Source: Deinococcales bacterium (GTDB taxonomy: Bacteria > Deinococcota > Deinococci > Deinococcales > JAAFIG01). From it: a DNA stretch of 64,000 bases. A program made the translations under genes and the position numbers. Below the pieces are notes generated by a model that was given only the letters and a program-made list of their open reading frames with translations, ran no database searches and had not been told where the DNA came from. Below, in pieces: positions 1-64,000 of the stretch (positions are counted from its first letter, which is position 1; each line of letters begins with the position of its first letter). The DNA is taken from assembly GCA_031414595.1 (NCBI GenBank), contig JANNVX010000064.1, positions 23,519 through 87,518 on the forward strand, in the 5' to 3' direction.

Positions 1-1507
1 TACCCGTATACTCGAGTAATAATTTCTCGAGAGCAGCAATTGCATCAGTATCCAGATTATTGGTGGGTTCATCCAAAATCAGCAATGAAGCTCGAGTGAC
101 CGATAACCGCGCTAAGGTTAAACGGGTGCGTTGCCCACCAGATAAAGTAGCAATGACTCGGGATGGTTCTTTGGGCAACCTTAAACTCGCCAGCAACGCA
201 TAGATTTCCTTGGTTTGCAAATGCGGATTAGCAGACAGCAGCGCCTCTTCAAGGGTGATGAATTCGTTGATTTCCTCAGTGTTCTGGGCTGCCCAGTAGA
301 CAGTCACATTCTGCCCGAAAGTCACATTGCCCGTAAACCCGAGTTGCCCTAGAATGGCTTTGATTAAGCTGCTCTTACCACCACCATTTGCTCCGACCAA
401 CGCAACTTTTTCACCACGTCCAATAAATAAATTAACCTTCTCGAGAATTATTTTTTCATCACGCTGCACCGTCACACCCTCGAGCTTAAGAACTTCAAAC
501 GCACCGACTGGCACAGCATCCAACTGAATTTTGGTCAAAAAACCATCTTCAAAAGGCTTCTCGAGTTCGCCCATGTGTTCAATGCGTTTCTCGAGTGCCA
601 GCGCACGTTTGCCTTGCTTATGCGACGCTCGGTTCATCAAATGAAAGGCAGTGGTGGCATCACGGCTTCCCACTCGGTGCTTATTTTCGCTTCTCGAGGC
701 TTGGGCAATGGCGGCTTGGCGCTCAAGGGCTAATTGTTTGATTTTACGTTCATGATTTTCAAACGCCAGCAATTGGTTTTCTCGAATGGCTTTTTTAAGC
801 GCCATTGCTTGGCTAAAATTCCCTTCGTACAAGCTGACTTTTTGCCGCTCGAGTTCATAACAACGCGTCACTGTCGCATCTAAAAAAGCCCTGTCGTGCG
901 AAACAATCATAAAACCCGCGTCAGAAGCTAAAATCCAATGCTCAAGCCAAGTTAAACTGTCTAAATCCAAGTGATTGGTTGGTTCATCCAACAAGTAAAA
1001 ATCGGCTGGCTGAATCAGTAACCGAGCCAGTAATGCGCGGCGTTCCTGCCCACCAGAAAGCGCGATACTCGAGCCTGAGCCTTCTAAACCCAGTCCAGCC
1101 AAGATTTCCTCAGCCCGAATTTCAAGGTCGTAGCCACCCGCAATTCTAAATTCTTCTTCTAGCAGTGCGTACTCGGTAAGATGCTCAGGGCTTGGATTCT
1201 CGAGGGCGACTTGGGCTGCCTCGAGTTTATGTTTCAAATCTTTAAGCGCATCGGGCAACACCACATCACGCAGCGCACCTGTCTCGAGGGTCGTGCGTTG
1301 TGCGAGATACGCCACTCGCCCAGTCAATGTCACTGTGCCAGTATCAGGTGGCTCAAAACCAGCCAGAATTTTGAGCAGCGTGGTTTTACCACTGCCATTA
1401 CGACCCAGCAGCGCAACCCGTTCGCCCATCTGTAACTCGAGGGCGACATCATCAAAAATTAAATTGTCTGCAAAGCGCTTTTGCGCTCCACGCATGATTA
1501 AGCTCAC
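1..1507 (-). CDS. ABC-F family ATPase (ribosome-associated, ARE-like), runs off the left edge
   Basis: Manual minus-strand translation from GTG 1507 (GGAGG RBS): two ABC domains with GRNGSGKT / GANGGGKS Walker A, LSGGQ signatures, LLDEPTNHLD / ILDEPTNNLD, helical linker, no TM segments. Missing from the ORF track because the stop lies outside the window. Confidence 0.92.
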   Translation of the reverse strand, partial: MSLIMRGAQKRFADNLIFDDVALELQMGERVALLGRNGSGKTTLLKILAGFEPPDTGTVTLTGRVAYLAQRTTLETGALRDVVLPDALKDLKHKLEAAQVALENPSPEHLTEYALLEEEFRIAGGYDLEIRAEEILAGLGLEGSGSSIALSGGQERRALLARLLIQPADFYLLDEPTNHLDLDSLTWLEHWILASDAGFMIVSHDRAFLDATVTRCYELERQKVSLYEGNFSQAMALKKAIRENQLLAFENHERKIKQLALERQAAIAQASRSENKHRVGSRDATTAFHLMNRASHKQGKRALALEKRIEHMGELEKPFEDGFLTKIQLDAVPVGAFEVLKLEGVTVQRDEKIILEKVNLFIGRGEKVALVGANGGGKSSLIKAILGQLGFTGNVTFGQNVTVYWAAQNTEEINEFITLEEALLSANPHLQTKEIYALLASLRLPKEPSRVIATLSGGQRTRLTLARLSVTRASLLILDEPTNNLDTDAIAALEKLLLEYTG

Positions 1508-1552
1508 GTGAACCTCCAAGAAAAAAGGGTGAAGACCTCTTGCCTATGGTGA

Positions 1553-1570
1553 TTAACGCAAACGTGTCAT
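1553..1570 (-). CDS. Putative leader peptide MTRLR* upstream of the ABC-F gene
   Basis: AAAGGA-N7-ATG ACA CGT TTG CGT TAA on the minus strand; ends in the R-L-R (+X+) motif. Confidence 0.6.
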   Translation of the reverse strand: MTRLR

Positions 1571-1634
1571 GCAGTAGTCCTTTGAAATAATTAAAGCCGT
1601 TGACTCGAGCCAATTCTCGAGGGAGTGGTTTAGA

Positions 1635-1661
1635 TTAACCCAAAATGTGCAGTAAAATCAT
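1635..1661 (-). CDS. Possible second upstream [11 protein letters not shown]
   Basis: ATG ATT TTA CTG CAC ATT TTG GGT TAA; shares TACTGCA...TTAATC blocks with the MTRLR region; weak RBS. Confidence 0.3.
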
Positions 1662-1710
1662 TACGAAAAATGGCGTATCTCTCACCCGGATTTTTGTTAG
1701 CATACGCGGC

Positions 1711-2205
1711 GTGAATCCGCTTGTTGGCATTATCATGGGCAGCCAATCCGACTTAGAAACTATGCAGCACACGGCGAATACCTTGCGTGACCTCGAGATA
1801 CCTTTTGAAATGCGAATTGTTAGCGCTCATCGCACCCCAGATTTACTTTTTGAATACGCCAAAAGCGCCGAGGCTCGAGGGCTTGAAGTGATTATCGCGG
1901 GGGCAGGCGGCGCAGCACATTTACCCGGAATGGCAGCCAGTCAAACCGTACTGCCCGTACTTGGCGTACCCGTACAAAGTAAAGCCCTAAACGGCTTAGA
2001 TAGCTTACTGAGCATTGTGCAAATGCCGGCTGGAATTCCAGTGGCAACGCTGGCGATTGGCAACGCTGGTGCTGTCAATGCGGCACTTTTAGCTGCCGCC
2101 ATCCTAGGCAATAAATACCCAGAAACTCGAGAGAAGCTGCGTTCTTGGCGTGAAAAACAAACAAAAACAGTTCTCGAGAACAGCCAACTCGAGGGCAATT
2201 CATGA
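1711..2205 (+). CDS. purE: N5-carboxyaminoimidazole ribonucleotide mutase
   Basis: [43 protein letters not shown] start 7 nt after TAGCAT. Confidence 0.97.
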
Positions 2206-3302
2206 TTCCGCCCGGAAGCACGATTGGCATTTTGGGTGGTGGGCAACTGGCGCGAATGCTGGCGCTGGCAGCCAGACCAATGGGATATAACGTCGTGGTA
2301 CTCGACCCAGACCCAGACTGCCCAGCTTCTGGTGTGGTGGACGAAGTGATTGTTGGTGCATTTGACAGCCCGAATGCCTATGCACAACTGGCTCAGGTCT
2401 GTGATGTGGTGACTTTAGAGTTTGAGAATATCCCATCAGAACACCTCAAAGCCCTCGAGCAAACCGTACCGTTGCGCCCAAACCGCAAAGTTCTTGAACG
2501 CAGCCGAGACCGACTGCTCGAGAAGAGCTTTATTACCAAAGCCGGTGTGCGTTGCGCTCCATTCCAAGCAATTTATGCCAGCAGCGACCTAGTAGCAGCC
2601 AGATACCCCGCAATTCTCAAAACTGCCACGTTAGGTTATGACGGCAAAGGACAAGCTAAGGTCTACACCCAACTCGAGGCAGTCAAGGCTTTTGAGCGCT
2701 TTGGCAGTGTGCCATGTGTTTTAGAAGGTATTATAGATTTTTTTCTCGAGATTAGCGTGATTGTGGCACGCTCAAGTACCCAAACCAAATGTTTTCCAGT
2801 CTTTGAAAACCAGCATCAGAACGGAATTTTGGACATCACCCTAGTGCCGGCTCGGATTCCAGAAGAAACCGCCGAAAAAGCCAAAGAAATTGCTATTAAA
2901 CTTGCCAATGCCCTCGAGTTACATGGATTGCTCTGCGTTGAAATGTTTGTCACCAACAACCAACAAATTCTGGTCAATGAGATTGCACCAAGACCACACA
3001 ACTCTGGGCATGTGACAATCGAAGCCTGTCAAACCAGTCAATTTGAACAAGCCGTGCGTGCCGTCTGCGATTTACCACTTGGCAGCACCGAATTACACTC
3101 GAGTGGCGCAATGGCGAACTTACTTGGTGAACACATCTCCCCAACTGCCAACTTTGGTGCAGCGCTCGAGACTGGGGCAAAACTGCACTTGTACCAAAAG
3201 CGCGAAGCTCGAGCAGGGCGCAAGATGGGGCATTTAACCGCGCTTGGTGAAGATGCTTTTGAAAAAGTTAAAGCGGCTCGAGCAGTGCTTAAAGAAACAT
3301 AA
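2202..3302 (+). CDS. purK: N5-carboxyaminoimidazole ribonucleotide synthase
   Basis: [41 protein letters not shown] overlap with purE. Confidence 0.97.
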
Positions 3303-3305
3303 ACC

Positions 3306-3400
3306 ATGCTTGAAGAACGTGCTAAGCGGGGTTCTCGAGAAAAGTTCTTAACTGCCTCGCAAGCCATGCCAAATGTTGCCCAAACCCAGAAGATATGTAA
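3306..3400 (+). pseudogene. Relic C-terminal fragment of a small RHH/HicB-like antitoxin
   Basis: LEERAKRGSREKFL..MPNV resembles the tail of small antitoxins that accompany PIN toxins (recognised from memory); no N-terminal DNA-binding part; apparent frameshift. Confidence 0.4.
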
Positions 3401-3418
3401 TTGCTGTACAATTGAGCC

Positions 3419-3661
3419 ATGAACTTAGACCTACCCAGCAAAACAGCCAAAACCCTCGAGCAACTGAGGCGTTCGCTTGGCACGACCAGAGAGGAAGCCA
3501 TTGACCGCGCCTTGAATTCTTATCTGGACGACATCAAAATGGAACGGGTTTTGACTGTCCCAAATCCTCGGACTAAAGACATGACCGAAGATGATGTTTA
3601 TGAAGTTGCCAATGCTGCCATAAAACGCGCTCGAGCCGAAAAGCGTGAGAAGAAACGGTGA
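3419..3661 (+). CDS. Ribbon-helix-helix antitoxin
   Basis: 80 aa, RHH-like N-terminus, GTGA overlap with PIN toxin, TACAAT 6 nt upstream. Confidence 0.75.
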   Translation: MNLDLPSKTAKTLEQLRRSLGTTREEAIDRALNSYLDDIKMERVLTVPNPRTKDMTEDDVYEVANAAIKRARAEKREKKR

Positions 3662-4086
3662 GGGTGGTTTTAGACACCAATATCTGGGTGGCTGGGGCAG
3701 CTAGACCCGAAGGCGTAACAGGCGCAATTCTATTTGCTTGGTTCAAAGAAAGGCGTTTTACACTACTCACTTCTAAAAGCCAACTCGAGGAATTCAAGAC
3801 CGTTACCAAGTATGCCCAAGTCAAAAAGATTCTTGGTAAGAACGAAGCTGGGGCATTGGTTAATCGAGTTAAGAAATTAGCTGAGTTTGTATCAGTCCGA
3901 GGCATTAAGAAAATTAGTCCAGACCCTGACGATGACTTTATTATTGCCATTGCCACCCAAGGCAAAGCCAATCATCTGGTCTCGAGAAACAAAATAGATT
4001 TACTCGACTTGGGTGTGATTGAGAATGTCCGAATGGTTACGCCCGAGCAGTTCCTACGATTTCTGCGGCGTGGTCGCTTGAACTGA
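3658..4086 (+). CDS. PIN-domain toxin (putative TA toxin component)
   Basis: MRVVLDTNIWV, DPDDDFIIAIA, LVSRN..DLL, VTPEQFL. Confidence 0.9.
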   Translation: MRVVLDTNIWVAGAARPEGVTGAILFAWFKERRFTLLTSKSQLEEFKTVTKYAQVKKILGKNEAGALVNRVKKLAEFVSVRGIKKISPDPDDDFIIAIATQGKANHLVSRNKIDLLDLGVIENVRMVTPEQFLRFLRRGRLN

Positions 4087-9752: not shown

Positions 9753-9829
9753 GCGCCCGTAGCTCAGTCGGATAGAGCAAAGCACTCCTAACGCTTAGGT
9801 CATCCGTTCAATTCGGATCGGGCGCACCA
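9753..9829 (+). tRNA. tRNA-Arg (anticodon CCT)
   Basis: GCGCCCG/CGGGCGC acceptor stem, D-arm AGCTCAGTCGGATAGAGC, loop CT-CCT-AA, T-loop TTCAATT, encoded CCA. Confidence 0.93.
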
Positions 9830-10135: not shown

Positions 10136-11821
10136 TTATTTCTGGACTGTTCGGTAGATTGCCTTATTGCGTATCCCCACCATTTCGAGTTTACCTTGTT
10201 TGACTAAACGCCTCAGTAAATAAGAGGCTTGGTCTTCAGAAAGCGTCGTGAAGAGTCGCATAACATCAGCTCTGGTAATTTCCGATTTGGCTTTCAGTAA
10301 ACTAGAGACCATGATTTCCTGTTCGGTGGCAACCAATCCACGTTGTCGAACATAGGCTTCTGGCTTACCCAATTGCTCATAAACAGCAGCACTTAAATGA
10401 TAGGTTTTGGGGCGCTTAAAGCCCCGAGCCTCGAGCAACCCAAGCTCGAGAAGCCGATTCAGTAGCATTGTAGCATGAGTCACATTATTTTCTAAGAGTT
10501 GAGTGGCTTGGTTTGTATTGATGTCACCCTCGAGAGCAACTTGATGCAAAATCAGGAGAGTAGCCCAGTCCAAGGGTTTACCAAGACGGTTTTGGACTTC
10601 GAGCCAGATATAAACCAATTTAAGGTCAGCTTCACCGCCAGAAAAAGAGAGCTTGACTGTTTGCCGATTTGTGCCAAAGTAACTTGGGGCAGCCCTGCCT
10701 GTACGAAGAATACTCTCAAAAATTCGCTCTACCCCTCGGGCGGTGCGTTCAACTAAACCAAGGCGCTTAAAAATATCTGCCAGCATTGGATTACGAGGAC
10801 GTGGCTCGGTACTGATGATATTTTCTAAAGTTACGCCTTCGACAAAACCGCCCGGACTCGAAATACTTAGGGCATCATTCTCGAGGATGCGAACATAAAC
10901 CGCTTGCCGTAGACTGTAATCCCTGTGAACAAGTGCATTGGCAAGGCTTTCGCGCACGGCTTCTTTGGGGTAAAGCGGTATGCCAATGCGTTGTAAGCCC
11001 CAATCGAGTTCTTGTTCACGGTTACGCACCAAAATATACTGCTCGAGGCTTTGCAAGAGTTTAAGCAGAGGTTCACGAAAAAACTGATTGACTTCAACAG
11101 CCTGTTCCGCGCCTAAGACCTGAAAAGCTGCCTCATGACTTGGAACGAATTCTTGCAAGGCTCTTTGTTTGCCCACAAGTAATAAACCCGCCAAAGTTGG
11201 GCGCACCACACCATCAACTGTTTTTACTAAACCCAAGGCTTTGGCTTGTTCAAGATGCCCTAAATCACGCAAACTAGGGTCGCTATTGGGGTTATCTTGC
11301 AATAACTGATTTAGGCGTTCAAATTCGAGTGGGTCAAGTTCGTCCCAAGTGGTATTCGACAGAATTTCTGCACTGTGGTCATATTGGGTCAGTTGTGACA
11401 AACGGCTTGGCATTTGGTCTGGATAGAACGGAATACACTCTGGGCGATTATGGACATCCAGACTACGGCGCATGGTTTTCCCATCGGTTGTGCTGATCAC
11501 CCGTTTGGCTTGTGGCACATCAATCACATCCACAAAAACATTGCCAACAGCAACTCGAGTTGCTCTAACGCCAGCACTTGGGCGGGTACGATTATTGATA
11601 CTTGCCTCGAGCCTTGGCGAAGTCATCTCGAGATGTTTTTGATGAACACCCGTTATCTGACCGTTATCTTCAACTCCAACCAGCAAAGTACCACCATCTG
11701 CATTGGCTAAACACACCACAGCTTCAAATAAATCGTTAGCTGAAATAGGCGCATCGCGCTTAAACTCGAGGGTCATGGATTCGCCGTGGGCTATCAATTT
11801 AAGCAATTCTGATTCGGTCAT
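10136..11821 (-). CDS. AlbA_2 (Schlafen-like) + HATPase_c_4 + HTH protein
   Basis: GESMTLEFK, LANADGGTLLVGVEDNG, RESLANALVHRDY, SPGG, PRNPMLADIF..LVERTARG, C-terminal HTHs; ATGA-coupled to the RM gene. Confidence 0.85.
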   Translation of the reverse strand: MTESELLKLIAHGESMTLEFKRDAPISANDLFEAVVCLANADGGTLLVGVEDNGQITGVHQKHLEMTSPRLEASINNRTRPSAGVRATRVAVGNVFVDVIDVPQAKRVISTTDGKTMRRSLDVHNRPECIPFYPDQMPSRLSQLTQYDHSAEILSNTTWDELDPLEFERLNQLLQDNPNSDPSLRDLGHLEQAKALGLVKTVDGVVRPTLAGLLLVGKQRALQEFVPSHEAAFQVLGAEQAVEVNQFFREPLLKLLQSLEQYILVRNREQELDWGLQRIGIPLYPKEAVRESLANALVHRDYSLRQAVYVRILENDALSISSPGGFVEGVTLENIISTEPRPRNPMLADIFKRLGLVERTARGVERIFESILRTGRAAPSYFGTNRQTVKLSFSGGEADLKLVYIWLEVQNRLGKPLDWATLLILHQVALEGDINTNQATQLLENNVTHATMLLNRLLELGLLEARGFKRPKTYHLSAAVYEQLGKPEAYVRQRGLVATEQEIMVSSLLKAKSEITRADVMRLFTTLSEDQASYLLRRLVKQGKLEMVGIRNKAIYRTVQK

Positions 11822-14800: not shown

Positions 14801-15048
14801 GTTTTTAAGACCTTATCGAGGTTTACAGCAAGGTCTTTAACCTCGAGATGCCCGACATCCAAGCTGCCTTTGGAAATAATAAAATCAGGTGCGCCGTAAA
14901 CTTTTCGTTTGGCTTCGTTGGTGGCTTTATAGCCAGTTAATACCGCCTCGAGTAAATCTTGTAAGTACGGGCGGTAGGTGTGTTCGGTGGCATCGGCTCG
15001 AGCGTAGGCTCGTTTAATCTGGCTTAGGTACTCTGCGATTTCGGACAT
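11818..15048 (-). CDS. Single-polypeptide RM enzyme (Type IIG / helicase-less ISP-like): nuclease + N6-adenine MTase + specificity domain
   Basis: PDF..LEVK nuclease-like motif, GVYYTPEPVV, LDPATGTGTFL, GNPPY, YRPFD, DFPRIP, IGGYQVLEKWLKDRK; start ATG 15048. Confidence 0.88.
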   Translation of the reverse strand: MSEIAEYLSQIKRAYARADATEHTYRPYLQDLLEAVLTGYKATNEAKRKVYGAPDFIISKGSLDVGHLEVKDLAVNLDKVLKTDQWQRYTNALGNLILSDYLEFRWYVRGKLRRTVRLADLVEKTITPRANAEEELSSLLQAFVQNPTPAAGSARELAMRLAYYAQQIRVVIRRVLREELKLLKKPLTEQFLSVKTILVAELTREEFADLYAQTLTYGLFATRIQQDEPDTSLGELSQFAPDFKERTFSRATPLLGIRGNAVLTQIFSYFGGAEAHPDFVWALEEAAMVLDSANMESIKTELGKTTGAGDPVLHFYETFLAAYDKAMREKRGVYYTPEPVVGYIVRSVDNILKTRFDLKRGLADPSKTADGVHKVQVLDPATGTGTFLHRVINHIYAGFSNNQGMWNGYVKDHILPRVHGFEFLIAPYTLAHLKLDFLLSRTGYKLQKDERVRIFLTNTLEQPRGVDQAFQPFAAALQQESLAASSIKRDTPVMVVLGNPPYSGHSANTGDWIHNLLHGLDTLNNQTGTNYFEIDGMPLGEANSKYLNDDYVKFIRFSQWRIDKTGAGILAFVTNHGYLDNPTFRGMRQALLNSFDELYFLDLHGNSRKKETSPDGSKDENVFDIMQGVAIGFFIKLPPNKKPPLELGKRVYHANLWGLREIFEGKAENAKLTGGKYFWLEENDLQSTQWTEIFPASPFYLFSPQDINAQVEYQEFWGIPDIFSISANGFKTHRDNFAIAFDKSEIEERIENLRDSSQSDDVLRQQYEIKNGGNWTLQATRAALRKDENWQSPIVKCHYRPFDTRWCYFSNLLMDRPRRELLQHVVHQDNLCLGIGRQGMAVNDPVWSLVQISKSPIDQNVFMRGGVQIFPLYLYPNTEGLALEAERRKANLSPKFIAALGQILGLEWLPDGLGDLIQNFAPEDVLHYIYAVLHSPKYRSRYAEFLKIDFPRIPLPTDLSAFVALVRLGRELSGLHLMTTELETSVTFPQAGLNVVDKPRYAAQKVWINDTQYFAGIPEQLWQTRIGGYQVLEKWLKDRKGRELSFDDINHYCQVAAALEQTQGLMEGIDLVLGAA

Positions 15049-15196
15049 AGAGCAGTCTACCAAAAGCACTTGGGGCTTTGGCTTCTTCCTTTTATATTGC
15101 TGCGTATTCTCTGGGCTGCCGAGGCTCGAGCCGATAAAACCCAAGAACCCTTGTAGCCCACAAATACGGTGCTGTGACGCTTCATGGGTATCTGAC

Positions 15197-19928: not shown

Positions 19929-19959
19929 GATGCGATTAGCATACGGTACAGTAACCCCA

Positions 19960-21279
19960 ATGCGGCAACTTCCGACTGGTTTTCTAAAACGAATGCAGAG
20001 CCTTTTAGGGACTGAATTTACAGCTTTTCAAAGCGAATTAGGCACAAGTGAACGGCAGTACGCGATTCGTGCCAATGCCCTTAAAATCTCTCGAGAAACC
20101 TTAGCCTTTAAGTTGGGCTTAACCGAAAATGTGCCTTGGTCAGATACAGGTTTGTACGCCACTCGAGAAGCGCGACTTGGCGCTCACCCACTGCACCACG
20201 CTGGGGCATATTACGTCCAAGAACCCAGCGCTCAAGCGGTCGCCTTGGCGCTGGATGTTCAGCCAAATTTGCGGGTCTTAGATTTGTGTGCTGCCCCAGG
20301 CGGTAAAAGCACCCACTTAGCTGCTTTGATGCAAAACCAAGGGGTGTTGGTTTGCAATGAAATCAGTGCCACGAGAGCTAGAGCCTTAAGCGAAAATCTC
20401 GAGCGCTTGGGCTGCATCGGGATTGTGACCAACGAAGAACCCGCCAGACTTGCCCAAAAATGGGGCGCAACCTTTGACCGTGTACTTGTAGACGCGCCAT
20501 GTAGCGGCGAAGGGATGTTTCGTAAGCATAATGCCGCCATAGAAAGCTGGTCAGAAGCGCATGTGGTGACTTGTGCGGTGCGCCAAAACTTAATTCTCGA
20601 GAATGCGGCGGCACTGCTCAACAATGATGGGATACTGGTCTACAGCACCTGTACTTTTGCAGTTGAGGAAAACGAAGATGTCATCACGGCATTTCTCGAG
20701 CAACACCCAGAATTTAGTCTCGAGCCAATACAGGGATTTAAGGCTGGAATCGGTGGTATTGGCTCGAGATTGTATCCACATTTGCTTCGTGGCGAAGGGC
20801 ATTTTCTGGCACGGCTTCGTAAAAATGGGCTTGCTGAGGTGAGCGAGGCATACTATCTTGACCCTACAGTTAAGGACAAAAAACCATTTGCCGAATTTGC
20901 TCGAGAATTTGCAATTCCAGACGGCATTGCTCTCGAGTTTCGTCAAGAGATTCATATGGCACACCCAAACAGCCCGAGTCTCGAGGGAATACGGGCGTTG
21001 CGGGCTGGGATTCCAGTAGCGCACCTCGAGAAAAACCGTCTTGAACCACATCATGCCTTGTCTCGAGTGACAAAAAATTATACCAATACAGTAGAACTCG
21101 AGGATTCAGAAATCATTGCGTACTTACGCGGCGAAACGATAACTCGAGACGGAAAAGCTGGTTGGGTTTTACTCGAGACTGGCGGTTTAGCCCTCAGTTG
21201 GGGTAAACAGGTTGGCAGTGTTATTAAAAATCATTATCCGAAGCATTTACGTGGCAATGCGTTACTACTCGAGGATTGA
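19960..21279 (+). CDS. rsmF: 16S rRNA m5C methyltransferase (RsmF/RsmB-NOP)
   Basis: YVQEPSA, DLCAAPGGKST, DAPCSGEGMF, YSTCTF, C-terminal KNHYPK. Confidence 0.88.
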   Translation: MRQLPTGFLKRMQSLLGTEFTAFQSELGTSERQYAIRANALKISRETLAFKLGLTENVPWSDTGLYATREARLGAHPLHHAGAYYVQEPSAQAVALALDVQPNLRVLDLCAAPGGKSTHLAALMQNQGVLVCNEISATRARALSENLERLGCIGIVTNEEPARLAQKWGATFDRVLVDAPCSGEGMFRKHNAAIESWSEAHVVTCAVRQNLILENAAALLNNDGILVYSTCTFAVEENEDVITAFLEQHPEFSLEPIQGFKAGIGGIGSRLYPHLLRGEGHFLARLRKNGLAEVSEAYYLDPTVKDKKPFAEFAREFAIPDGIALEFRQEIHMAHPNSPSLEGIRALRAGIPVAHLEKNRLEPHHALSRVTKNYTNTVELEDSEIIAYLRGETITRDGKAGWVLLETGGLALSWGKQVGSVIKNHYPKHLRGNALLLED

Positions 21280-21319
21280 ACTCAGTCCACTCGAGGATTG
21301 AACTCAGTCCAAGGATTGA
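21268..21319 (+). repeat. 22-bp tandem repeat starting at CTCGAG
   Basis: ctcgaggattgaactcagtcca x2 plus partial aggattga. Confidence 0.85.
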
Positions 21320-21385
21320 GAAGATAAAACCACCACCTCAAAAATAGCGTAGACTAGCCTTCGATTCACAAATAAGGAGAGGTGT

Positions 21386-22954: not shown

Positions 22955-22964
22955 AGCAAAAAAC

Positions 22965-22993
22965 TCGAGGAGCGTATTTAATGCGCTCCTCGA
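22965..22993 (+). terminator. Hairpin after the SBP gene
   Basis: TCGAGGAGCG-tatttaatg-CGCTCCTCGA. Confidence 0.55.
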
Positions 22994-23040
22994 TTCGTAG
23001 GATTTAAGGCGATAAGTCAAGGTCAGCGATGCGCTAAAAC

Positions 23041-23087
23041 TCAAAGCTCATAGCCCATAGCCCATAGCCCATAGCCCAAAGCTCAAA
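23041..23087. repeat. Heptamer tandem repeat (YCAWAGC x6)
   Basis: tcaaagc tcatagc ccatagc ccatagc ccatagc ccaaagc. Confidence 0.8.
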
Positions 23088-23100
23088 AAGAGACCCTAAA

Positions 23101-25353: not shown

Positions 25354-25362
25354 GATTGAGTC

Positions 25363-26142: not shown

Positions 26143-26145
26143 AGG

Positions 26146-27555: not shown

Positions 27556-27580
27556 GGATTCCCCTTGGGGTCTGTGCAAA

Positions 27581-27603
27581 GGCGAGGCATGCCTCGCCCC
27601 TAC
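27581..27603 (-). repeat. GTAG-type REP-like palindrome
   Basis: Minus strand GTAGGGGCGAGGCATGCCTCGCC; near-identical copy at 34325-34348. Confidence 0.7.
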
Positions 27604-27606
27604 GGA

Positions 27607-28800
27607 TTATAAAAATTGTTTCCAGAATTGCTCGAGTTTGTCTAGGGCAGCATCCATTGTTGGGCGTGGACACATCAGGCTTAGACGCACAAAGCCTTCT
27701 GCACCACTGCCAAAGACCACACCGGGTCCAACCCGAACCGCGTGTTGTTCGATTAAACTCGAGGCGAATTCCATTGAACCCATCTTGGATGCACGAATGT
27801 CTGCCATGATGTAATAACTTCCACTGGTGCGGATAAACGGTAGACCCATACCCTCGAGTCTCGAGATTAAATAGCTTCGGCGTTCGGCATAGGTTTGTAG
27901 GCGTTCCTGCCATGCACTTTGGTCGCCAGTCAGGGCAGCCAGTGCTGCCAGTTGGGTTGGGGTGCTGGTGCTGATTGAGTGCATATGGCGGGTTTCGGTG
28001 GCGACTTGTTTTAACCACATTGGCACAGCCAAATAGCCAACCCGCAAACCAGTCATGCCGTAGGTTTTGGAAAAACCATTAACCGTGATGGTGCGCTCGA
28101 ACATATTGGGTAATCGGGCAAAAGAAAATTGTTCCGCGCCATCGTAAATGTATTTTTCGTAAAGTTCGTCGGACACGACCAAGAAATTGTGCTTCTCGGC
28201 AAGGGCTGCAATCCCCATCATTGTTTCTCGAGTGACCACTGCGCCCGTTGGATTGTCTGGGCTGACCACAATCACCAGTTTGGTGCGTGGCGTAATGGCT
28301 GCCTCGAGCGCGGCTAAGTCCCAAGACCAGCCTGTTTCTGGTTTGACTGGCACAGTCACGGCTTTGCCACCACACAGCGCCACGATGTTGTTATAGGCAC
28401 TGTAGTACGGGTTGGTCAAAATCACTTCGTCATTTGGGTTTAAGAGCGCAGCGCACATCACATAAATCGCTTCTTGCGCCCCTGCCGTGACGATGATGTT
28501 ATCTGCCACGTACTCGAGATGATTTTCCGAGCGTAACTTGGCAGCAATCGCTTCACGCAAAGGCACAATGCCATCATAAGGCGTGTACTGCAAAATGCCG
28601 TTTCGTAAGCCCTCACGCATCGCATCCAACACAAAATCTGGGGTCGGCAAATCTGGTGTGCCAGAGCCGAGATTGACTAAGCCCTTGGCGTTCTGCACGG
28701 CGGCAACCATACGCGGGTTAATCGGGTTGCCAATGGAATGCTCTAAGTTATCCACTGCAACTCGAGACAAGAATTTTGAAAAATTAACCGTCTGTGTCAT
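27607..28800 (-). CDS. PLP-dependent aminotransferase class I/II
   Basis: NLGSGTPD, PDNPTG, SDELY, SKTYGMTGLRVG. Confidence 0.95.
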   Translation of the reverse strand: MTQTVNFSKFLSRVAVDNLEHSIGNPINPRMVAAVQNAKGLVNLGSGTPDLPTPDFVLDAMREGLRNGILQYTPYDGIVPLREAIAAKLRSENHLEYVADNIIVTAGAQEAIYVMCAALLNPNDEVILTNPYYSAYNNIVALCGGKAVTVPVKPETGWSWDLAALEAAITPRTKLVIVVSPDNPTGAVVTRETMMGIAALAEKHNFLVVSDELYEKYIYDGAEQFSFARLPNMFERTITVNGFSKTYGMTGLRVGYLAVPMWLKQVATETRHMHSISTSTPTQLAALAALTGDQSAWQERLQTYAERRSYLISRLEGMGLPFIRTSGSYYIMADIRASKMGSMEFASSLIEQHAVRVGPGVVFGSGAEGFVRLSLMCPRPTMDAALDKLEQFWKQFL

Positions 28801-36066: not shown

Positions 36067-36111
36067 AAAATCTCCTTTGGTTGACTGCTGCACACAAGAA
36101 CGTGAATTCCG

Positions 36112-36228: not shown

Positions 36229-36302
36229 GACCAATTGCGTTTTGCCAAGATACTTTGAGGCTGTTTTGTCTCGAGTTTTTATCTCGAGACACGGCGTTTG
36301 AT

Positions 36303-38135: not shown

Positions 38136-38207
38136 ACTTCCTCCTTTGAAACCAAGCACCTTGTCTTCTCGAGCCGCTAATTTAAGTTAGAAATCGTTTC
38201 AAATAGA

Positions 38208-55950: not shown

Positions 55951-56793
55951 TCAATCTTGGCTTAAGACTTCGGCTAAGACCTTACTGCGTCCCAAAGGGT
56001 AAATATGCGCCCCAGCTACACCAATTTGGCGTAAACCTAAAACCACTTTTTTTGCCCAAGCTATCCCAGCCGCTCGCCCACCATGCTCGAGGGCAATTAA
56101 AAGCGCCTCGGGGATGCTTGCCCATTTGGAAACCCGTTGTGCCATCTCGAGACTGAGTACAGGCAGCACACCATAAAGCACGGGAATACTTGGCTGCACA
56201 ATATCTATAAACCGCCTGACAGTTTCCATCTCAAAGACCGGTTGGGTCTGAGCAAAGTGCGCTCCTGCGGCTACTTTTTCCAAGAACCGGTGTTTCTCGA
56301 GGGTTAAATCAGTGGCACTTGGATTAGCGGCTACGGCAATTGTAAAGCTACTCGGCTCGAGGTCACGTCCAGCATGAGACTTTCCTGCGTTTAAGCCGCT
56401 CACAATGCGGGTTAAGCCCACTGCATCCACTTCAAAAACACCATGGGCGGTGGGGTGATCGCCAATTGAAGGTGGGTCGCCACGTAGACACAAAATGTTC
56501 TGCACCCCAAGCGCCGCCGCCCCCAGCAACTCAGATTGTAAACCCAGTACATTGCGGTCACGACAAGTAAAATGAGCAATCACTTCTAAGCCAAGCTGAC
56601 TCTGCACCAAATGGGCTGCCACCAAAGGATTCATTCGCAAGTTGGCTTGAGGGCTATCAGAGATATTGACTGCATCCACAAGTTTTTGCGCGGCGGCGGC
56701 TTCCTCGAGTAATTTTGTGGCATCCGAACCACGCGGCGGGTCAAGCTCGGCGGTCAAGATAAAGGTTTGACCGAGTTGGTCACGTAGGTTCAT
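55951..56793 (-). CDS. metF: Methylenetetrahydrofolate reductase
   Basis: [32 protein letters not shown]-coupled to metK. Confidence 0.88.
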
Positions 56794-57956
56794 GCCAACC
56801 TCGCGGCACGGTCGGTTTGTTCCCACGGCAAGTGTGCCTGTCCAAAATGCCCATAACTCGAGGTCGGCACATAAATCGCTTGCTCGAGACCAAGTTCTTC
56901 GATAATCGCTAAGGGGCGCGGGTCAAAGTGTTCTCGAGCTAACCGACTTAAATCTTGGTCAGAAATTTTACCCGTGCCAAAACTCTCGACCCGCAGACTG
57001 ACCGGATGGGCTTTACCTATCGCATACGCCACTTCGACCATGGCACGGCTGGCAAGTCCAGATGCCACGATGTTCTTTGCCATATAGCGGGCATAATAAG
57101 CGGCGCTTCGGTCTACTTTGGTTGGGTCTTTGCCACTAAACGCCCCGCCACCATGCGGAATTGCCCCGCCATAAGTATCCACAATGATTTTACGACCGGT
57201 TAAACCAGTGTCCGCTCCGGGACCACCAAAAATAAACGAACCAGACGGGTTAATTAAGTAATTGACCTGACTCGAGTCTAGCCAATCTGGAATGACGGGC
57301 AGAATTACATGTTGAATCATATCGGCATGGATTTGTTCTTGACTGATGTCTGGGGCGTGTTGGGTGCTGATGACTGCCGTCTCGAGACCGACCGGTTTTG
57401 CCCCGTCATAAATTAAGGTGACTTGGGATTTTCCATCGGGGCGCAAATAGGCTAAAGTGCCATTTTTACGCACCTCAGCTAGTTTTCTCGAGATTCGGTG
57501 CGCCAACCAAATCGGGGTTGGCATCAGTTCTGGTGTTTCATCAGTCGCATAGCCAAACATCAAGCCTTGGTCGCCTGCTCCGCGTTCGTTGCGTGGGTCA
57601 CGGTCTCCGCCACGCCATTCGGTTGAAACATTGACCCCACTGGCAATTTCTGGACTCTGCCCAGTAATCGTGTTTAGCACCGCCACATGTTCGGCATCAA
57701 AACCAAGTTCGGCACTGGTGTACCCGACTTCGGTAATTGCTTGACGCACTGTTTTCTGCACATCCACAAATTCGGCACTCGAGGTGATTTCACCTGCTAC
57801 CAAGACCAAGCCTTTGGTAACAAGGGTTTCGCAAGCCACTCGAGACTTTGGATCTTGACTTAAAAAAGCGTCCAGAATTGAATCGGAAATCCGATCCGCA
57901 AGTTTATCGGGATGACCTTCTGTCACCGATTCAGAACTGACCAAACGATACTGCAT
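56790..57956 (-). CDS. metK: S-adenosylmethionine synthetase
   Basis: [33 protein letters not shown]. Confidence 0.98.
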
Positions 57957-58058
57957 ACAACCTCCGCAAAAAATTGAAGAGCGAACCACTGTTACAAAAG
58001 TGGTGTGACAAAAAACCGATTTGAATAGAACATTCCCCTTTCTGGAAGGGAAGTCCCT

Positions 58059-58183
58059 TCCTCATCGCTCCGTTGCCCACGAATTTGGGTAACGGCTGGC
58101 TGAAGCACCTAAAGCCCAAGAATAAGGGAATGGTTGCTGCAACGGTCACTGCGCCAGGACGCTCGCGTTGCTCTGGATGAAGC
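58059..58183 (-). promoter_or_regulatory. SAM-I riboswitch
   Basis: UUCAUCCAGAG...CUGGC...GCAACC...GGUGC...GCCAG...GAUGAG (P1, pseudoknot CUGGC/GCCAG, P3 core) upstream of metK; downstream hairpin 58033-58052. Confidence 0.85.
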
Positions 58184-59948: not shown

Positions 59949-60144
59949 GAAGTTTTGCTAATTGTCTCGAGAACTGTGGCTTTGACTGAACCTACATCAT
60001 CTTTTAAGGTCGCTAGGGTTTGTCATTTAGACTCAAACCCCCCAACAACTGCTCCTCCTTCAAAAAAATTCTTTTTGCCTGACCCAGCAGGGTTTTCAAA
60101 AGATAAAATTCTGCTCTTGGTGGTAGGGAATCTGAAAACTATCT

Positions 60145-60666
60145 TTAATATGGTTTGATACCAAATAAAAGGGTTTTGGGTGAGCCACCACGCTGGATTA
60201 AAACACTTGAATTTATTTTGACTGAGTGACCAAGTGCAAGCATCACTGATTCGAGAGGTACATACCAAAGACCATTATAATTTGTTGGAGCTACAGGTAA
60301 AGGAAAGCGTATTGTATCGTTAAAATAGTTTGATGTTGGTGGTAATTGTGAAATGTGCATTTCAGAGGCACCAATTTTAAAATCAATACCACGGATTGAA
60401 AAAAAGCCCCAATACTTATCAATCTTGACTTGCTCAATCGCAGAATTGATAAGTAAGACGGGAATCCATACGCGACCATCGCGTCGAAGAATTGGCAATG
60501 CTCTAAGTGGTTCAATTGCTCGGTCAGTCATAGGAACTATTCTTCCGTCTACGGAAAAACTTGAAAAATTGCTGCCATTTGGGGAGTTGCTAGATTGAGA
60601 AAATCCCATGACAATCACTGCAAAGTAGCACAAAGCTATAATTATAAAAACTAATGATTTTTTCAT
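60145..60666 (-). CDS. Secreted hypothetical protein, copper-amine-oxidase N-terminal-like domain
   Basis: Signal peptide; GRVWIPV and GLWYVPLESVMLALG repeats; low GC. Confidence 0.5.
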   Translation of the reverse strand: MKKSLVFIIIALCYFAVIVMGFSQSSNSPNGSNFSSFSVDGRIVPMTDRAIEPLRALPILRRDGRVWIPVLLINSAIEQVKIDKYWGFFSIRGIDFKIGASEMHISQLPPTSNYFNDTIRFPLPVAPTNYNGLWYVPLESVMLALGHSVKINSSVLIQRGGSPKTLLFGIKPY

Positions 60667-60690
60667 GCCTATCTTCTACACTACAACCCT

Positions 60691-61731
60691 ATGAATACGA
60701 TTAGAAAGCGTCAGTCAGAAAGTACAGGGAAGTATCGGTACTATGTACTCCTCGCAATCTTATGTTTTTCATCAGTAGCATGCTTACAGGAAACTACAAT
60801 AGATACAGATATGCCTCTCATTGAAGAACAATTGAAAACAAAGTTAAACAATGTTCTTCCAAGTTTAAGTCCTGAATTAAGAGAGTCAGCAACTTATATT
60901 GATCTCAAAAATGGCTTTGAATATAGCAATTCGGGTGGTTTTCAAAAAATCGAAGTAGGTTACGAAGATCAATTGGGAATCGTGAGGTTTGCCAATGGTG
61001 CAACCTTAAAGAAAAACTCACAGTTAATAAAGGAATCGGATAAATTGCGTCTTCAAGCCAATTTTACGTTTTTGCGGGGGGTAAATTCTGTGGTTGGATA
61101 TAATGGTATTTCTGCAGAATTTACTCCTCCATCCAATAATTCAATATGGTTTAACGGAATAAATGAGGCAGGCGAAGCAGGCTACAATTATCTTGGAGTG
61201 AGGTCTACTCAGCCCATATGTACCCCAAGCACTTATAATCCTGTTTGCCCACCTGGATCGATACCGCGTAGCTTTGATGCTGAAGGTGGGACTTTTACAA
61301 GTGCAGGACCTTTTTACCTTGTTGGTAAGTATTACTTTTATATAAGTAATAATGGTGCAAATACTCCACTACGCTGGCCAACATATGATGGCTATTCCGG
61401 TAGCACTGTTAGAATGTCACTGAGAGTATTGCAGGACGATAAAATACAATTTACTGTTTTCCCGCTCCAAGAAAGTACATCAAAAACTTGGATCATTGAT
61501 GCAGTTGGTGCGAAGGCTTCAGGGGTAGGAGCGCAAGTGCGTAAGAATACCAGTTTGCTAGTTAATAATTTCGATGCCCGTTTCTGGGGTAGCTTTTGGC
61601 AATTTGGTAGGTTGTATCAGAATAGTAATGCCTCACAAACTTTTTTCAATTCAAACTTAGCTTCTTCAACAACGGGTTCATGTGCATCTAATTGTTTCCC
61701 ATACGAAACAGAGCGAATCAACTTGCCCTAG
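60691..61731 (+). CDS. Hypothetical lipoprotein
   Basis: Hydrophobic stretch ending SSVAC, beta-rich G/S/N-rich body; low GC. Confidence 0.55.
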   Translation: MNTIRKRQSESTGKYRYYVLLAILCFSSVACLQETTIDTDMPLIEEQLKTKLNNVLPSLSPELRESATYIDLKNGFEYSNSGGFQKIEVGYEDQLGIVRFANGATLKKNSQLIKESDKLRLQANFTFLRGVNSVVGYNGISAEFTPPSNNSIWFNGINEAGEAGYNYLGVRSTQPICTPSTYNPVCPPGSIPRSFDAEGGTFTSAGPFYLVGKYYFYISNNGANTPLRWPTYDGYSGSTVRMSLRVLQDDKIQFTVFPLQESTSKTWIIDAVGAKASGVGAQVRKNTSLLVNNFDARFWGSFWQFGRLYQNSNASQTFFNSNLASSTTGSCASNCFPYETERINLP

Positions 61732-61947
61732 AAAATCTTTTGAAGATTTCTTACTTCCACTTTCTAGTGTAAACAGGTAGGTCTTATCTTTGAGTGATGC
61801 TGTCGTCCAATAGGCACTTAGTCTTGGTGTTCTGGGATTTTAAGAGCAGATGTTATTGAATGAATAAAGGTAAAGTGGTCAGCTATATTTCACTCATGGA
61901 TTGAATGAATCACTTTGTCAAAATTTTGACTTTCGCTACCTTAACCA

Positions 61948-62139
61948 AAAAAGGAAAATCATGAACTCGTTTCACAGAGGTACGCTGAACTTGTCATGCA
62001 GAGGTACACCATGAATTCCCCGCTCGAGTATTTCCAAAGGCGTTGGGTACAACTTTCTTTTTCTTTGGCTGTGATTGCGATTGGCTTATTCTCGATTCAA
62101 TTTATTTTTGGCTCGTTTAGGGGTGTAATTCAAGAACTC
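61948..62139 (+). repeat. 192-bp direct repeat, right copy
   Basis: Similarity ends at the first base of CTCGAG 62139-62144. Confidence 0.92.
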
Positions 62140-63171
62140 TCGAGTGTCTTTGTCTTGGGTGGTTTATCTTACCTTTTTGCCTATTTGTTCCATCCGCTTG
62201 TGATGTGGCTAAAAAATCGTGGTGTACGGCGTGGCTTGGGTTTATTGGTAGCATTTATTATTGTACTTTTATTCTTAGCCTTGTCTACGATTCTGATTGG
62301 TACAGTGGTACAAGAACTGGCGTTGTTTGCTCAGAAATTACCAGTCTTGGTGACAAACATCCAAACCCAAATCAATGTTTGGTTGGATGAACTCGAGCAG
62401 GTGCGTGGTCAGAATCAACAGATTCGGGATTTAATTGATCAGGTCACAAGTGCCGTTCAAACAGCCCTCTCGAGTATTGTCCAGAATTTACTGGGCTTGT
62501 TACAAAATGCCAGCAGTGGACTTGTCACACGCACCCTTGGCGTACTTGGTGGGGTGGTGCAGTTTTTCTTGGTGCTGATTATTGGCACGTATATGCTTGG
62601 GGCATTCGAGGGCATCGGTAAAACCATGATTGGCTTGTTTCCAGTGCGTTTTCAGGGTCGGGTTCTCGAGTTTTCTAAAGATGTTTCTGTGGCGGTTGGT
62701 GGCTATATTCGCGGGCAACTCTTAATTGCTTTGGCAGTCGGAACAATGGTTGGCACTGGACTAGCGATTCTTGGTGTGCCTTTGGCTTTGGCACTTGGTT
62801 TTATCAGTGGGGTTTTTAATATCGTGCCGTACCTTGGGGTGATTATTTCGATTGCTCCTGCGCTACTGCTTGCCAGTCAATTTGGTTTGGTCAAAGTGCT
62901 TTTGGTGGTTTTGGTTTTTGTGATTGCCAATCAGGTCGAAGCACTGGTCTTAAGCCCCAACATCCTTGGGCGAAGCACCGAACTGCATCCGATTACGATT
63001 ATCCTGACCATCATTGCAGGGGCAAGTGTGCTAGGCGTATTTGGTGGTTTGTTGGCTGTGCCACTGGTGGCATTGGCAAAACTCTTGGTTTATAAGCACT
63101 GGATTGGTTCACCGTGGCATGGAAGTACAAAAGAAGCACCAGAAGCTGTTCTCGAGCAAGTCGAAGCCTAA
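62011..63171 (+). CDS. AI-2E (PerM) family transporter
   Basis: AYLFHPLV, GYIRGQL, NIVPYLG, LSPNILG..LHP, GGLLAVP. Confidence 0.92.
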   Translation: MNSPLEYFQRRWVQLSFSLAVIAIGLFSIQFIFGSFRGVIQELSSVFVLGGLSYLFAYLFHPLVMWLKNRGVRRGLGLLVAFIIVLLFLALSTILIGTVVQELALFAQKLPVLVTNIQTQINVWLDELEQVRGQNQQIRDLIDQVTSAVQTALSSIVQNLLGLLQNASSGLVTRTLGVLGGVVQFFLVLIIGTYMLGAFEGIGKTMIGLFPVRFQGRVLEFSKDVSVAVGGYIRGQLLIALAVGTMVGTGLAILGVPLALALGFISGVFNIVPYLGVIISIAPALLLASQFGLVKVLLVVLVFVIANQVEALVLSPNILGRSTELHPITIILTIIAGASVLGVFGGLLAVPLVALAKLLVYKHWIGSPWHGSTKEAPEAVLEQVEA

Positions 63172-64000
63172 CCAATGTTGGTACTGGCAATCCGTTTGCC
63201 TTTCTCGAGGTACATCGCACGGTCAGCTTGGCGTAAAACCGTGTCGAGGTCTCGTTGTTCAATCGCAGCCCAACCCGCCGATACATCCGAGAACTTTTGG
63301 CGCACATTGGCGTAGACATCAGACAAATTGGTTTGACTGTCATGAAAACTGACAAATTCGTCGCCACCGATGCGGTAGAGGTCATCAAAGCATTGACTTT
63401 GGTAGGCTTTGACAAATGCCAGTAAATAAGTGTCTCCTGCGTGGTGTCCTTTTTCATCATTGACTTTTTTTAAGCCGTTGACATCCCACATGCACATCAA
63501 ACCCCGTCCTTTTAATCTAATAAAATCGGCTTGTAAAGCAAAACGATTACCCAATTTGGTCAGTGGATCGCTACTTGCCATCTTCTCGAGTTTGGCTCGG
63601 GCTTGGTCTACGTCGGCTACAAGACGATGAATTAAAGCCCCCGAAAAGGCTGTGCCTATCAGAATAACCCAACCAATTACGGTGGCTTCGATATTTGAAT
63701 TTGGTTTGGTAAAAATGACTGGAATACTTGCCAGCAATGCCAGCAATCCACCACGCCAACCCCAAAGCACACTGATAAATAAAGTTGGTAAAGTGACAAT
63801 CGAAAGCACTGCAAATGAATTATTAAACACCCCACTGGTGATTAAAAAAGATGCACTTAAGACAATAGACGTTATCGGAAATAAGAAACTAGCTCGATTT
63901 CCGCAAAGCCCGTTTGCGAAAAGCACAGCGAAGGTTATGCAAACCACAAGCAATCTCCATAAACCAATCAGAGCAATACCACTTCGTATTCCGCAACACG
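63168..64000 (-). CDS. Membrane GGDEF diguanylate cyclase (frame open to the right edge)
   Basis: DPLTKLGNR, DVNGLKKVND..GHHAGD, RIGGDEF, ADRAMY. Confidence 0.9.
   Translation of the reverse strand, partial: CCGIRSGIALIGLWRLLVVCITFAVLFANGLCGNRASFLFPITSIVLSASFLITSGVFNNSFAVLSIVTLPTLFISVLWGWRGGLLALLASIPVIFTKPNSNIEATVIGWVILIGTAFSGALIHRLVADVDQARAKLEKMASSDPLTKLGNRFALQADFIRLKGRGLMCMWDVNGLKKVNDEKGHHAGDTYLLAFVKAYQSQCFDDLYRIGGDEFVSFHDSQTNLSDVYANVRQKFSDVSAGWAAIEQRDLDTVLRQADRAMYLEKGKRIASTNIG

Follow-up and report, generated by a model that had tools for sequence, protein, structure and literature searches.

The 64,000-base stretch of DNA analyzed here (the window; positions 23519–87518 of contig C64 in assembly G000, from an uncultured Deinococcales family) carries the 6-base palindrome CTCGAG dispersed over its whole length (1..64000), in all three frames of genes on both strands and in intergenic DNA. 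An exact search found 385 copies (6.0/kb), compared with 8.72 ± 3.10 in 100 dinucleotide-preserving shuffles of the window, none of which (0/100) reached 385 (maximum, 18); the excess is 44-fold. Counts in successive 4-kb segments were 35, 31, 19, 20, 25, 27, 22, 27, 25, 17, 27, 27, 26, 20, 29, and 8. The original prediction, made from the letters of the window alone, had put 35 sites in positions 1–4000, and exactly 35 start there; the iteration that it claimed for the window is real and exceeds its estimate. Its assignment of the DNA to a Deinococcota-type genome agrees with the closest public records (Deinococcales, Meiothermus, and Deinococcaceae) and with the RsmF protein encoded in the window, which best fits a Thermus-type model.

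The G000 assembly (4,488,778 bases in 120 contigs; 47.2% GC; 94% completeness and 0.5% contamination) contains 23,235 copies of CTCGAG, i.e. 5.18/kb or 5,176 per Mb, which is 23.9 times the expectation from base composition. CTCGAG is the commonest hexamer of this genome by location count, and the next word that does not overlap with it has a count of 11,129. As much as 69% of all TCGA and 90% of all CTCGA (23,235/25,876) fall within the motif, and because so many of the CTCGA pentamers belong to it, the maximal-order Markov observed/expected ratio (O/E) of CTCGAG, 1.16, is uninformative. The bases flanking the motif are nearly unconstrained in G000, with the exception that CCTCGAGG is depleted. 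We note that CCTCGAGG has 178 copies genome-wide, compared with 1,100–1,900 for the other NCTCGAGN flank pairs, and is thus eight-fold rarer. The window has none, and it looks as though a longer, 8-base palindrome around CTCGAG is avoided in its turn. Highly iterated palindromes (HIPs) are over-represented about 15-fold or more and reach about 1,000 or more copies per Mb, in all coding frames and in non-coding DNA. CTCGAG falls in this class by abundance, being 23.9-, 44-, 56-, or 10-fold over-represented according to the null used and present at 5,176 copies per Mb, and its description as a palindrome of the HIP or DNA uptake sequence (DUS) type holds for the genome as a whole.

Open reading frames (ORFs) of at least 100 amino acids were taken from G000 greedily by length, a crude procedure that leaves start positions imprecise; the 3,820 ORFs cover 87.5% of the genome. 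The density of CTCGAG was 5.15/kb within these ORFs and 5.38/kb outside them. In coding DNA, 12,015 sites occupy the frame CTC|GAG, 3,964 the frame xCT CGA Gxx, and 4,269 the frame xxC TCG AGx, and 3,015 sites lie partly or wholly outside ORFs, as expected from the earlier claim that the motif occurs in all frames and in intergenic DNA. The 20,248 coding sites compare with 1,984 ± 41 (maximum, 2,047) in 20 synonymous-codon shuffles per gene, which keep the protein and the motif-inflated codon usage (an excess of about 10-fold), and with 913 ± 26 after codon-order shuffling. In non-coding DNA, 2,974 sites were observed, 56 times the 53 sites that a first-order Markov model predicts when the motif is masked. 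Further, the density of CTCGAG stays level near 5/kb on either side of starts and stops, apart from a slight dip over the initial 30 bases of an ORF and a slight rise at stops. We conclude that the force favoring CTCGAG acts on DNA and not on codons and does so uniformly, whether in genes, at their ends, or between them. An active process of this kind, distinct from codon usage, had been proposed at the outset, with an O/E near 1 after codon shuffling as the result that would speak against it; the observed counts lie far above both codon nulls.

These data bear directly on the view that the abundance of CTCGAG is a by-product of codon or dipeptide usage, a by-product of avoiding other palindromes, or an assembly artefact. 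CTC-GAG does encode the common pair Leu-Glu, and many other palindromes are avoided in G000. However, shuffles that keep amino acids and codon usage yield 10 times fewer sites, non-coding DNA is as densely populated as coding DNA, and unavoided synonyms, e.g. TTAGAA and CTTGAA, are available yet far less used. In addition, the trait is equally dense in the 12 other assemblies of the family and in differently titled public metagenome-assembled genomes (MAGs; 4.8–6.2/kb). Codon usage and artefact are therefore excluded as explanations of CTCGAG, and we give this view as a whole practically no credence.

The effect of this force on proteins is considerable. In G000, 60% of Leu-Glu pairs (12,015/20,024) are spelled CTCGAG, and CTC makes up 64.8% of Leu codons preceding Glu but 7.9% of those elsewhere. 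When a position in any of the three frames is called synonymously accessible if a synonymous spelling could yield CTCGAG, about half of the accessible positions (20,248/40,215) are realized as the motif. Leu-Glu has the highest O/E of all dipeptides (2.23, some 11,000 pairs above expectation), and that of Glu-Leu is 0.98. The ribosomal-protein cluster on contig C93 has a lower density (2.87/kb), mainly because it offers fewer accessible positions, 42 of 104 of which are still realized. We conclude that under this force Leu-Glu dipeptides have become about twice as numerous and the proteins have been altered.

The evolution of individual sites was followed by aligning the genes of the window, codon by codon, with syntenic stretches from two genomes of the same genus (G003 and G007; about 80% nucleotide identity to G000 and a third-position identity of 0.58–0.59) and two of other genera (G022 and G012; 71–73% nucleotide identity). 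CTCGAG sites of G000 were kept at 123 of 155 positions in G003 and 94 of 116 in G007, compared with 30% for other hexamers, and at 55 of 102 positions in G022 (18% for other hexamers) and 47 of 101 in G012 (14%). In this comparison of orthologues, of a kind that had been suggested, retention is thus 79–81% within the genus and 47–54% between genera, in agreement with the retention of HIP sites above background. As for HIPs, the sites have spread by substitution: because a single aligned G000 site out of 475 lies opposite a gap, we conclude that CTCGAG arises by substitution and not by insertion, in keeping with the variable flanks and with the unique contexts of site pairs at distance 7 (see below). 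Where Leu-Glu is conserved between genera, the relative spells it CTCGAG in 81–82% of cases if G000 has the site and in 89–92% if it does not, with no association between the two genomes (Fisher p = 0.67 and 0.71); in the comparison with members of the same genus, some association remains (p = 0.003). Retention between genera is therefore saturation of conserved Leu-Glu and not position-specific conservation, and the pattern is that of a stationary directional force, under which each available position tends to CTCGAG independently in each lineage.

Words one substitution away from CTCGAG are raised in non-coding DNA when the change is a transition (O/E 1.56–1.95) and range from 0.58 to 1.5 when it is a transversion. 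The raised neighbors suggest that a large stock of sites is decaying by mutation rather than that a specific mismatch substrate is being consumed. Under a simple reversible model, the 56-fold excess of the motif over a 1.2-fold level of its neighbors in non-coding DNA gives, as a rough estimate, a scaled fixation advantage of about e^3.8 per site. Contigs from four runs of three other studies align to window positions 20000–39999 at roughly 88–95% identity, and none of the 40 differences listed out of 2,457 lies inside a listed CTCGAG site, a number too small to test site protection. A scan of viral contigs for three sites within 70 bases returned, among the matches listed, mostly high-GC repeat stretches, which are uninformative about phages of the G000 family.

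Gaps between sites in G000 average 191 bases with a coefficient of variation (CV) of 0.99, and their median of 138 bases compares with 133 under a geometric law. At distances of up to 300 bases, the only periodicity is the 3-base coding period; neither helical nor other short-range periodicity beyond 3 bases nor regular spacing was found over this range. The long-range periodicity that is characteristic of HIPs lies at 10–90 kb. Two sites never start 6 bases apart, an arrangement that would create GAGCTC, of which G000 has 6 copies. A start-to-start distance of 7 occurs 101 times, in each case in a unique context (101/101), as at window positions 27853..27865, and distances of 8–20 are depleted, with 17–84 occurrences each compared with about 120 expected. 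The densest 400-base windows of the genome hold 10 sites; there are three such stretches, all mostly or wholly within ORFs, compared with about 1.4 windows expected. One of the three is the local maximum at positions 20900..21295, near the Poisson tail, held by the gene for an RsmF-like rRNA methyltransferase (19909–21279, plus strand; NF041567 RsmF_Thermus, 4e-105). As no cluster in G000 exceeds the Poisson tail in 400-base windows, nothing resembles an origin cluster.

Long gaps free of CTCGAG are in excess, with 42 longer than 1,500 bases compared with 9 expected, and these are mostly of 32–42% GC. In the window, the stretch at 59972..62022 (2,051 bases, 38.8% GC) is site-free and holds two ORFs without a Pfam match; it is probably a recent acquisition that has yet to gain sites. 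Several seemingly foreign methyltransferase genes in relatives also have zero CTCGAG. Taken with the site-free low-GC islands, this suggests that sites accumulate with residence time. We conclude that the force acts site by site, as reflected in the Poisson spacing, and spares recently acquired low-GC DNA.

The family was represented by the 13 genomes first searched, from five genera and 57–94% complete. All 13 are rich in CTCGAG (12,028–35,442 copies each, or 4.3–6.8/kb on rounded genome sizes), whereas the reversed word GAGCTC has 3–568 copies per genome. Stretches of 9–65 kb fetched from family members had local GC contents of 43–63% and 4.6–7.0 sites/kb, and the enrichment is thus independent of genomic GC. 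In a survey of 201 genomes of the phylum, genus g7 (83 species; Deinococcus-like, although the genus labels given here are guesses) had at most about 0.3 CTCGAG/kb, and g9 (30 small genomes; Thermus-like by the same kind of guess) had about 0.6–1.6/kb with GAGCTC about as frequent. A density of 1.4–3.6 CTCGAG/kb, with GAGCTC much scarcer, was found in genera g12, g13, g14, and g35 and in parts of family f2. Stretches of one of these intermediate genomes (G034) had 2.53 sites/kb in coding and 2.46 in non-coding DNA, with 125 sites compared with 46 ± 5 in synonymous shuffles and 51% of Leu-Glu spelled CTCGAG, and stretches of three others (G112, G083, and G194) had 3.1–3.3/kb, 3.3–4 times above synonymous shuffles, with 68–75% of Leu-Glu so spelled. 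The intermediate genera show the same DNA-level phenomenon in a weaker form. No enrichment was found in stretches of G016 from g9 (56 sites observed, 72 in shuffles), and in G014 from g7 (e.g. C1:100001–120000 and 200001–220000) CTCGAG is avoided, with 2 sites compared with 6.7 in synonymous shuffles. We note that g7, which is the largest genus in this order, has 26–1,010 copies per genome in the 83 genomes searched and avoids the very word that its sister lineages hoard. Public MAG records titled Meiothermus sp. had 2.1–2.7 sites/kb. The first 50 kb of the A. silvanus megaplasmid pMESIL01, from a strain without listed CTCGAG methylation, had 1.26/kb (3.7 times composition), an intermediate value that is weak evidence, as a plasmid may not represent the chromosome. 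Overall, we conclude that the directional force has existed long enough to be common to five genera and that it varies by degrees within the order.

The original prediction knew of no characterized CTCGAG system in this phylum, and here it has to be corrected. The supplement of a methylome survey (Blow et al., 2016, PMC4752239) records N6-methyladenine (m6A) at 99.5% of CTCGAG in Meiothermus ruber DSM 1279 (M.Mru1279II), at 94.1% in M. chliarophilus DSM 9957 (M.Mch9957IV, annotated as a Type I methyltransferase subunit), and at 94.6% in Marinithermus hydrothermalis DSM 14884 (M.Mhy14884I, annotated "Eco57I"). No restriction partner is listed for any of the three enzymes, and M. silvanus has no CTCGAG methylation entry (PMC4752239). 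Judged by annotation, these enzymes belong to more than one family. CTCGAG is thus methylated in the phylum by at least two unrelated types of enzyme, and the lack of a shared orthologue in the G000 family therefore does not exclude methylation. In the sections of the main text of PMC4752239 seen by us, CTCGAG figures only as the word of a Nocardia orphan methyltransferase with clusters at the origin, and genome-wide word abundance is not addressed. The accessible part of a 2026 preprint gives CTCGAG and TCGA as methylated motifs common to one hot-spring host-phage group, whose phylum is not stated there. Alternate HIPs are listed by Elhai (2015, PMC4390886), and CTCGAG is not among them and has 0 occurrences in the portion of that text available to us. 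No prior report of CTCGAG hyper-abundance was found in the literature searched.

G000 has a large set of restriction-modification genes, comprising nine PF01555 matches, five cytosine-5 (C5) methyltransferase genes, five Type I operons, and MmeI-like and other large enzymes, as well as a Type ISP enzyme in the window and a D12 methyltransferase beside a MutH/Sau3AI-family ORF (C1:26904–28231). We note that G000 avoids most other palindromes, with 152 copies of GGCC (O/E 0.01), an O/E of 0.14 for GATC, 0 copies of GGGCCC, 2 of TGCGCA, 3 of CGATCG, and 6 of GAGCTC; the window has 5 GGCC, 26 GATC, and 1 GAGCTC. This avoidance accompanies at least five Type I operons, five C5 and about eight N4/N6 methyltransferases, and MmeI-like enzymes, and the unusually large gene set fits its extreme degree. 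The Type ISP enzyme (11818–15144, minus strand; 1,108 residues; Type_ISP_C, 1e-88, with a weak N6_Mtase match) has 18 CTCGAG in its gene and lies next to a protein with Schlafen/AlbA_2 and HATPase_c_4 domain matches (10136–11893, minus strand); the pair resembles a defense island, and its CTCGAG density is normal.

Several other elements of the window can be noted. A hairpin-forming intergenic element of about 204 bases (36079–36282) is missing from the contig of a relative, which joins position 36078 straight to 36283; many contigs in G000, G003, and G007 contain parts of it, and it looks like a miniature inverted-repeat transposable element. A hairpin resembling repetitive extragenic palindromes, with the stem GGCGAGGCA/TGCCTCGCC followed by CCTACGG, lies downstream of genes at 27583–27607 and 34327–34351, and near-identical copies of about 30 bases are found on many other contigs of G000 and its relatives. 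An ordinary S-adenosylmethionine (S-box) riboswitch (58059–58183, minus strand) lies upstream of an equally ordinary S-adenosylmethionine synthetase gene (56790–57989, minus strand), and the one tRNA gene of the window (9753–9826, plus strand) is ordinary as well.

Among known iterated words, CTCGAG is most readily compared with the cyanobacterial HIP1, GCGATCGC, and its alternates GGCGCC, GCsGC, GGGATCCC, rCCGGy, and TCGATCGA, as given in the parts of Elhai (2015, PMC4390886) and Xu et al. (2018) available to us. Like HIP1, it is a GC-containing palindrome that is tens-of-fold over-represented in coding and non-coding DNA and retained between genomes, it has spread by substitution and shaped codon-pair usage, and solitary methyltransferases in relatives methylate a related word. 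Unlike HIP1, it occurs in another phylum, has 6 bases and not 8, and reaches 5,176 copies per Mb compared with the 300–2,700 per Mb quoted for HIP1 in the accessible text of PMC4390886; in addition, no family-wide methyltransferase was found, and retention between genera follows from Leu-Glu saturation. With M.Mru1279II, M.Mch9957IV, M.Mhy14884I, and the Nocardiaceae enzyme of PMC4752239, three of which are from the same phylum, the G000 system shares the word and the lack of a listed restriction partner, but it differs from the Nocardia orphan, as far as the consulted text describes it, in having no cluster beyond the Poisson tail. Dam-, CcrM-, or Nocardia-like systems have one orphan methyltransferase conserved across the clade and motif clusters at the origin; no such methyltransferase was found among the six family genomes compared, and no such cluster in G000. 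We conclude that CTCGAG is a strand-symmetric iterated palindrome of the HIP type, which a genome-wide force pushes toward saturation by point substitution wherever it is tolerated, i.e. a HIP-like genomic watermark in a new phylum.

How this force works is a separate matter. We tentatively favor, at somewhat less than even chances, a mechanism in which the force depends on a CTCGAG-reading protein that most likely recognizes the m6A form and acts while DNA is exchanged or repaired between cells. A dimeric CTCGAG-specific protein would read the site as a mark of "own" DNA; by analogy with the methylomes of cultured relatives, the mark would probably be CTCG(m6A)G, made by solitary adenine methyltransferases. 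Alleles carrying the site would then be slightly favored upon uptake, recombination, or repair between members of the population, which would amount to molecular drive or weak per-site selection. Something similar has been suggested for HIP1 in its methylated state: according to PMC13756078, such sites make the transformation of two cyanobacteria more efficient, and a DNA-uptake "watermark" is proposed there. In line with this mechanism, the competence channel gene ComEC is present in all 13 family genomes.

A number of observations weigh against this proposal. The methylation evidence comes from cultured relatives of the G000 family and would apply to the family itself only by analogy, and a 6-base signal is far shorter than known uptake sequences. 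No methyltransferase orthologue common to G000, G006, G010, G011, G012, and G021 was found in searches with PF00145, PF01555, and PF02384 in all six genomes and with PF07669 and PF02086 in five (G012 excepted), and after clustering of the PF00145, PF01555, and PF02384 matches no group occurs in more than three of the six. The single-contig genome G021 has 0 PF01555 matches, one C5 gene without CTCGAG, and two D12 genes. Many methyltransferases are encoded in G000, none assignable to CTCGAG. Two TaqI_C proteins of G000 are too restricted in distribution, L021 (with a helix-turn-helix domain) having orthologues only in G000, G001, and G003 (3/13 family genomes) and L024 only in G000 and G001 (2/13), and the PF02384 genes L016–L020 of G000, L061 of G010, and L060 of G021 all (7/7) adjoin HsdS and are thus Type I subunits. 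Methylation covering the site is, moreover, not sufficient, as an M.TaqI orthologue is present in 30/30 of the unenriched g9 genomes. The competence channel gene ComEC (PF03772) was found in 21/21 genomes, including 13/13 of the family, and is equally present in genera without enrichment.

Other candidates were examined in the same searches. HsdS lies two genes away from L062 of G011, and near L065 of G021 nothing but an HsdR-like gene, four ORFs away, was seen. The M.TaqI orthologue, identified from the TaqI-like methyltransferase of G019, is also present in 2/2 g17 genomes and absent from g12 (0/18), g13 (0/4), g14 (0/3), and the two family genomes searched (0/2), and it does not track the enrichment. 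An orthologue of a TaqI-like or a solitary HsdM-like enzyme was not found in G000. The D12 methyltransferase genes common to G021 and G011 are missing from G000, and one of them (77% identical) is sporadic in CTCGAG-poor genomes. The XhoI-type restriction enzyme (PF04555) was found in 0/13 family genomes and only in G015. An NCBIfam scan of 12 candidates assigned no specificity to any of them. Profiling for a co-occurring methyltransferase, as the original prediction had recommended, thus yielded none that tracks CTCGAG enrichment among the families profiled.

The same data can be set against other ways in which such a force could arise. A drive specific for CTCGAG could be independent of any conserved methyltransferase, with fixation biased by a factor of competence, recombination, or repair that recognizes the hexamer itself; we consider this unlikely, yet with an appreciable chance of being right. 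A plain uptake signal of the DUS or uptake signal sequence (USS) type that the competence machinery reads without methylation and that spreads by uptake bias and recombination, seems to us improbable. CTCGAG does share with the DUS/USS of Neisseriaceae and Pasteurellaceae that it is lineage-specific, genome-wide, in all frames, distorting to the proteome, common to related genera, and lacking in recent islands; ComEC is present throughout the family, and relatives in the phylum are known to be naturally transformable. However, DUS/USS are non-palindromic words of 9–12 bases that occur about once per kb, often as inverted pairs in terminators, whereas CTCGAG is much shorter, palindromic, and about five times denser (6 bases, 5.2/kb), with random spacing (CV 0.99) and a density in convergent spacers of 6.2/kb compared with 5.1 in divergent and 5.6 in tandem ones. 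Further, no receptor candidate was found, ComEC does not distinguish enriched from unenriched genera, and we know of no uptake specificity in this phylum. About as much weight goes to an explanation not yet thought of, for which we would reserve a small chance. Slightly less credible is a ratchet of methyl-directed or very-short-patch repair, Elhai's model for HIP1, in which a methyltransferase marks the site and mismatches in near-sites are corrected preferentially to CTCGAG by a MutH- or Vsr-like nuclease. Intracellular enzymes would suffice for it, coding and non-coding DNA would be affected alike, as observed, and relatives methylate CTCGAG; the mean spacing of 191 bases is also of the order of that of GATC in Escherichia coli. 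In E. coli, Dcm and Vsr raise CCWGG and lower CTWGG, and CTCGAG resembles that system if a repair bias at a methylated palindrome shifts word frequencies genome-wide. However, the shift seen here is larger by orders of magnitude, searches of five family genomes found no Vsr (PF03852; 0/5) and MutH (PF02976) in just one (1/5), there beside a D12 methyltransferase as a GATC-type system, and G010 has no C5 genes. No one-off neighbor is depleted in non-coding DNA, where transitions are in fact raised, and geometric spacing with an excess of long gaps gives no sign of selection for coverage. Methyl-directed or very-short-patch repair, which the original prediction had listed as a candidate process, thus receives no support.

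We hold it to be no more credible than such a ratchet that CTCGAG is the binding site of an abundant nucleoid or chromosome-organizing protein, with each site kept by weak selection, a structural role of the sort proposed for HIP1 in the available part of Xu et al. (2018). A palindrome suits a dimeric binder, density is uniform over the genome, and sites are retained above background. However, spacing is neither regular nor periodic at short range beyond 3 bases, positions are not specifically conserved between genera once Leu-Glu conservation is taken into account, and no candidate protein was found. A Chi-like signal that tames a helicase-nuclease, so that CTCGAG-rich DNA survives and recombines, is very improbable. 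Short Chi words can be very dense, and some family members have AddAB-like pairs of PDDEXK_1 proteins of about 900–1,000 residues, but no more than 7 of the 12 other family members have PDDEXK_1 matches, such matches occur in unenriched genera as well, G000 has just one such protein of 256 residues, and known Chi words are asymmetric and strand-biased, which is impossible for a palindrome.

To our knowledge, HIP1 has gone without an explanation for thirty years, and all known HIPs are in one phylum. CTCGAG is an independent case in another phylum, with a shorter and denser word that reshapes protein sequences. The gradient within one order, from avoidance through no enrichment and 1.4–3.6/kb to 4.3–6.8/kb, suits phylogenetic mapping of the responsible gene, and the cultured species of Meiothermus, Calidithermus, and Marinithermus, to which the intermediate genera are presumably linked and among which m6A at CTCGAG is known, make the question of iterated palindromes testable outside cyanobacteria. 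In these genomes, XhoI- and TaqI-type digestion, codon-pair models, gene finding, and the detection of horizontal transfer are all affected, and the absence of CTCGAG flags recent acquisitions. Should the drive prove independent of a methyltransferase, it would have added some 11,000 Leu-Glu pairs to the proteome and filled half of the possible positions, and it would represent a new kind of genome-wide sequence drive, the strength of which has evolved across the Deinococcales from avoidance to 7 sites per kb.

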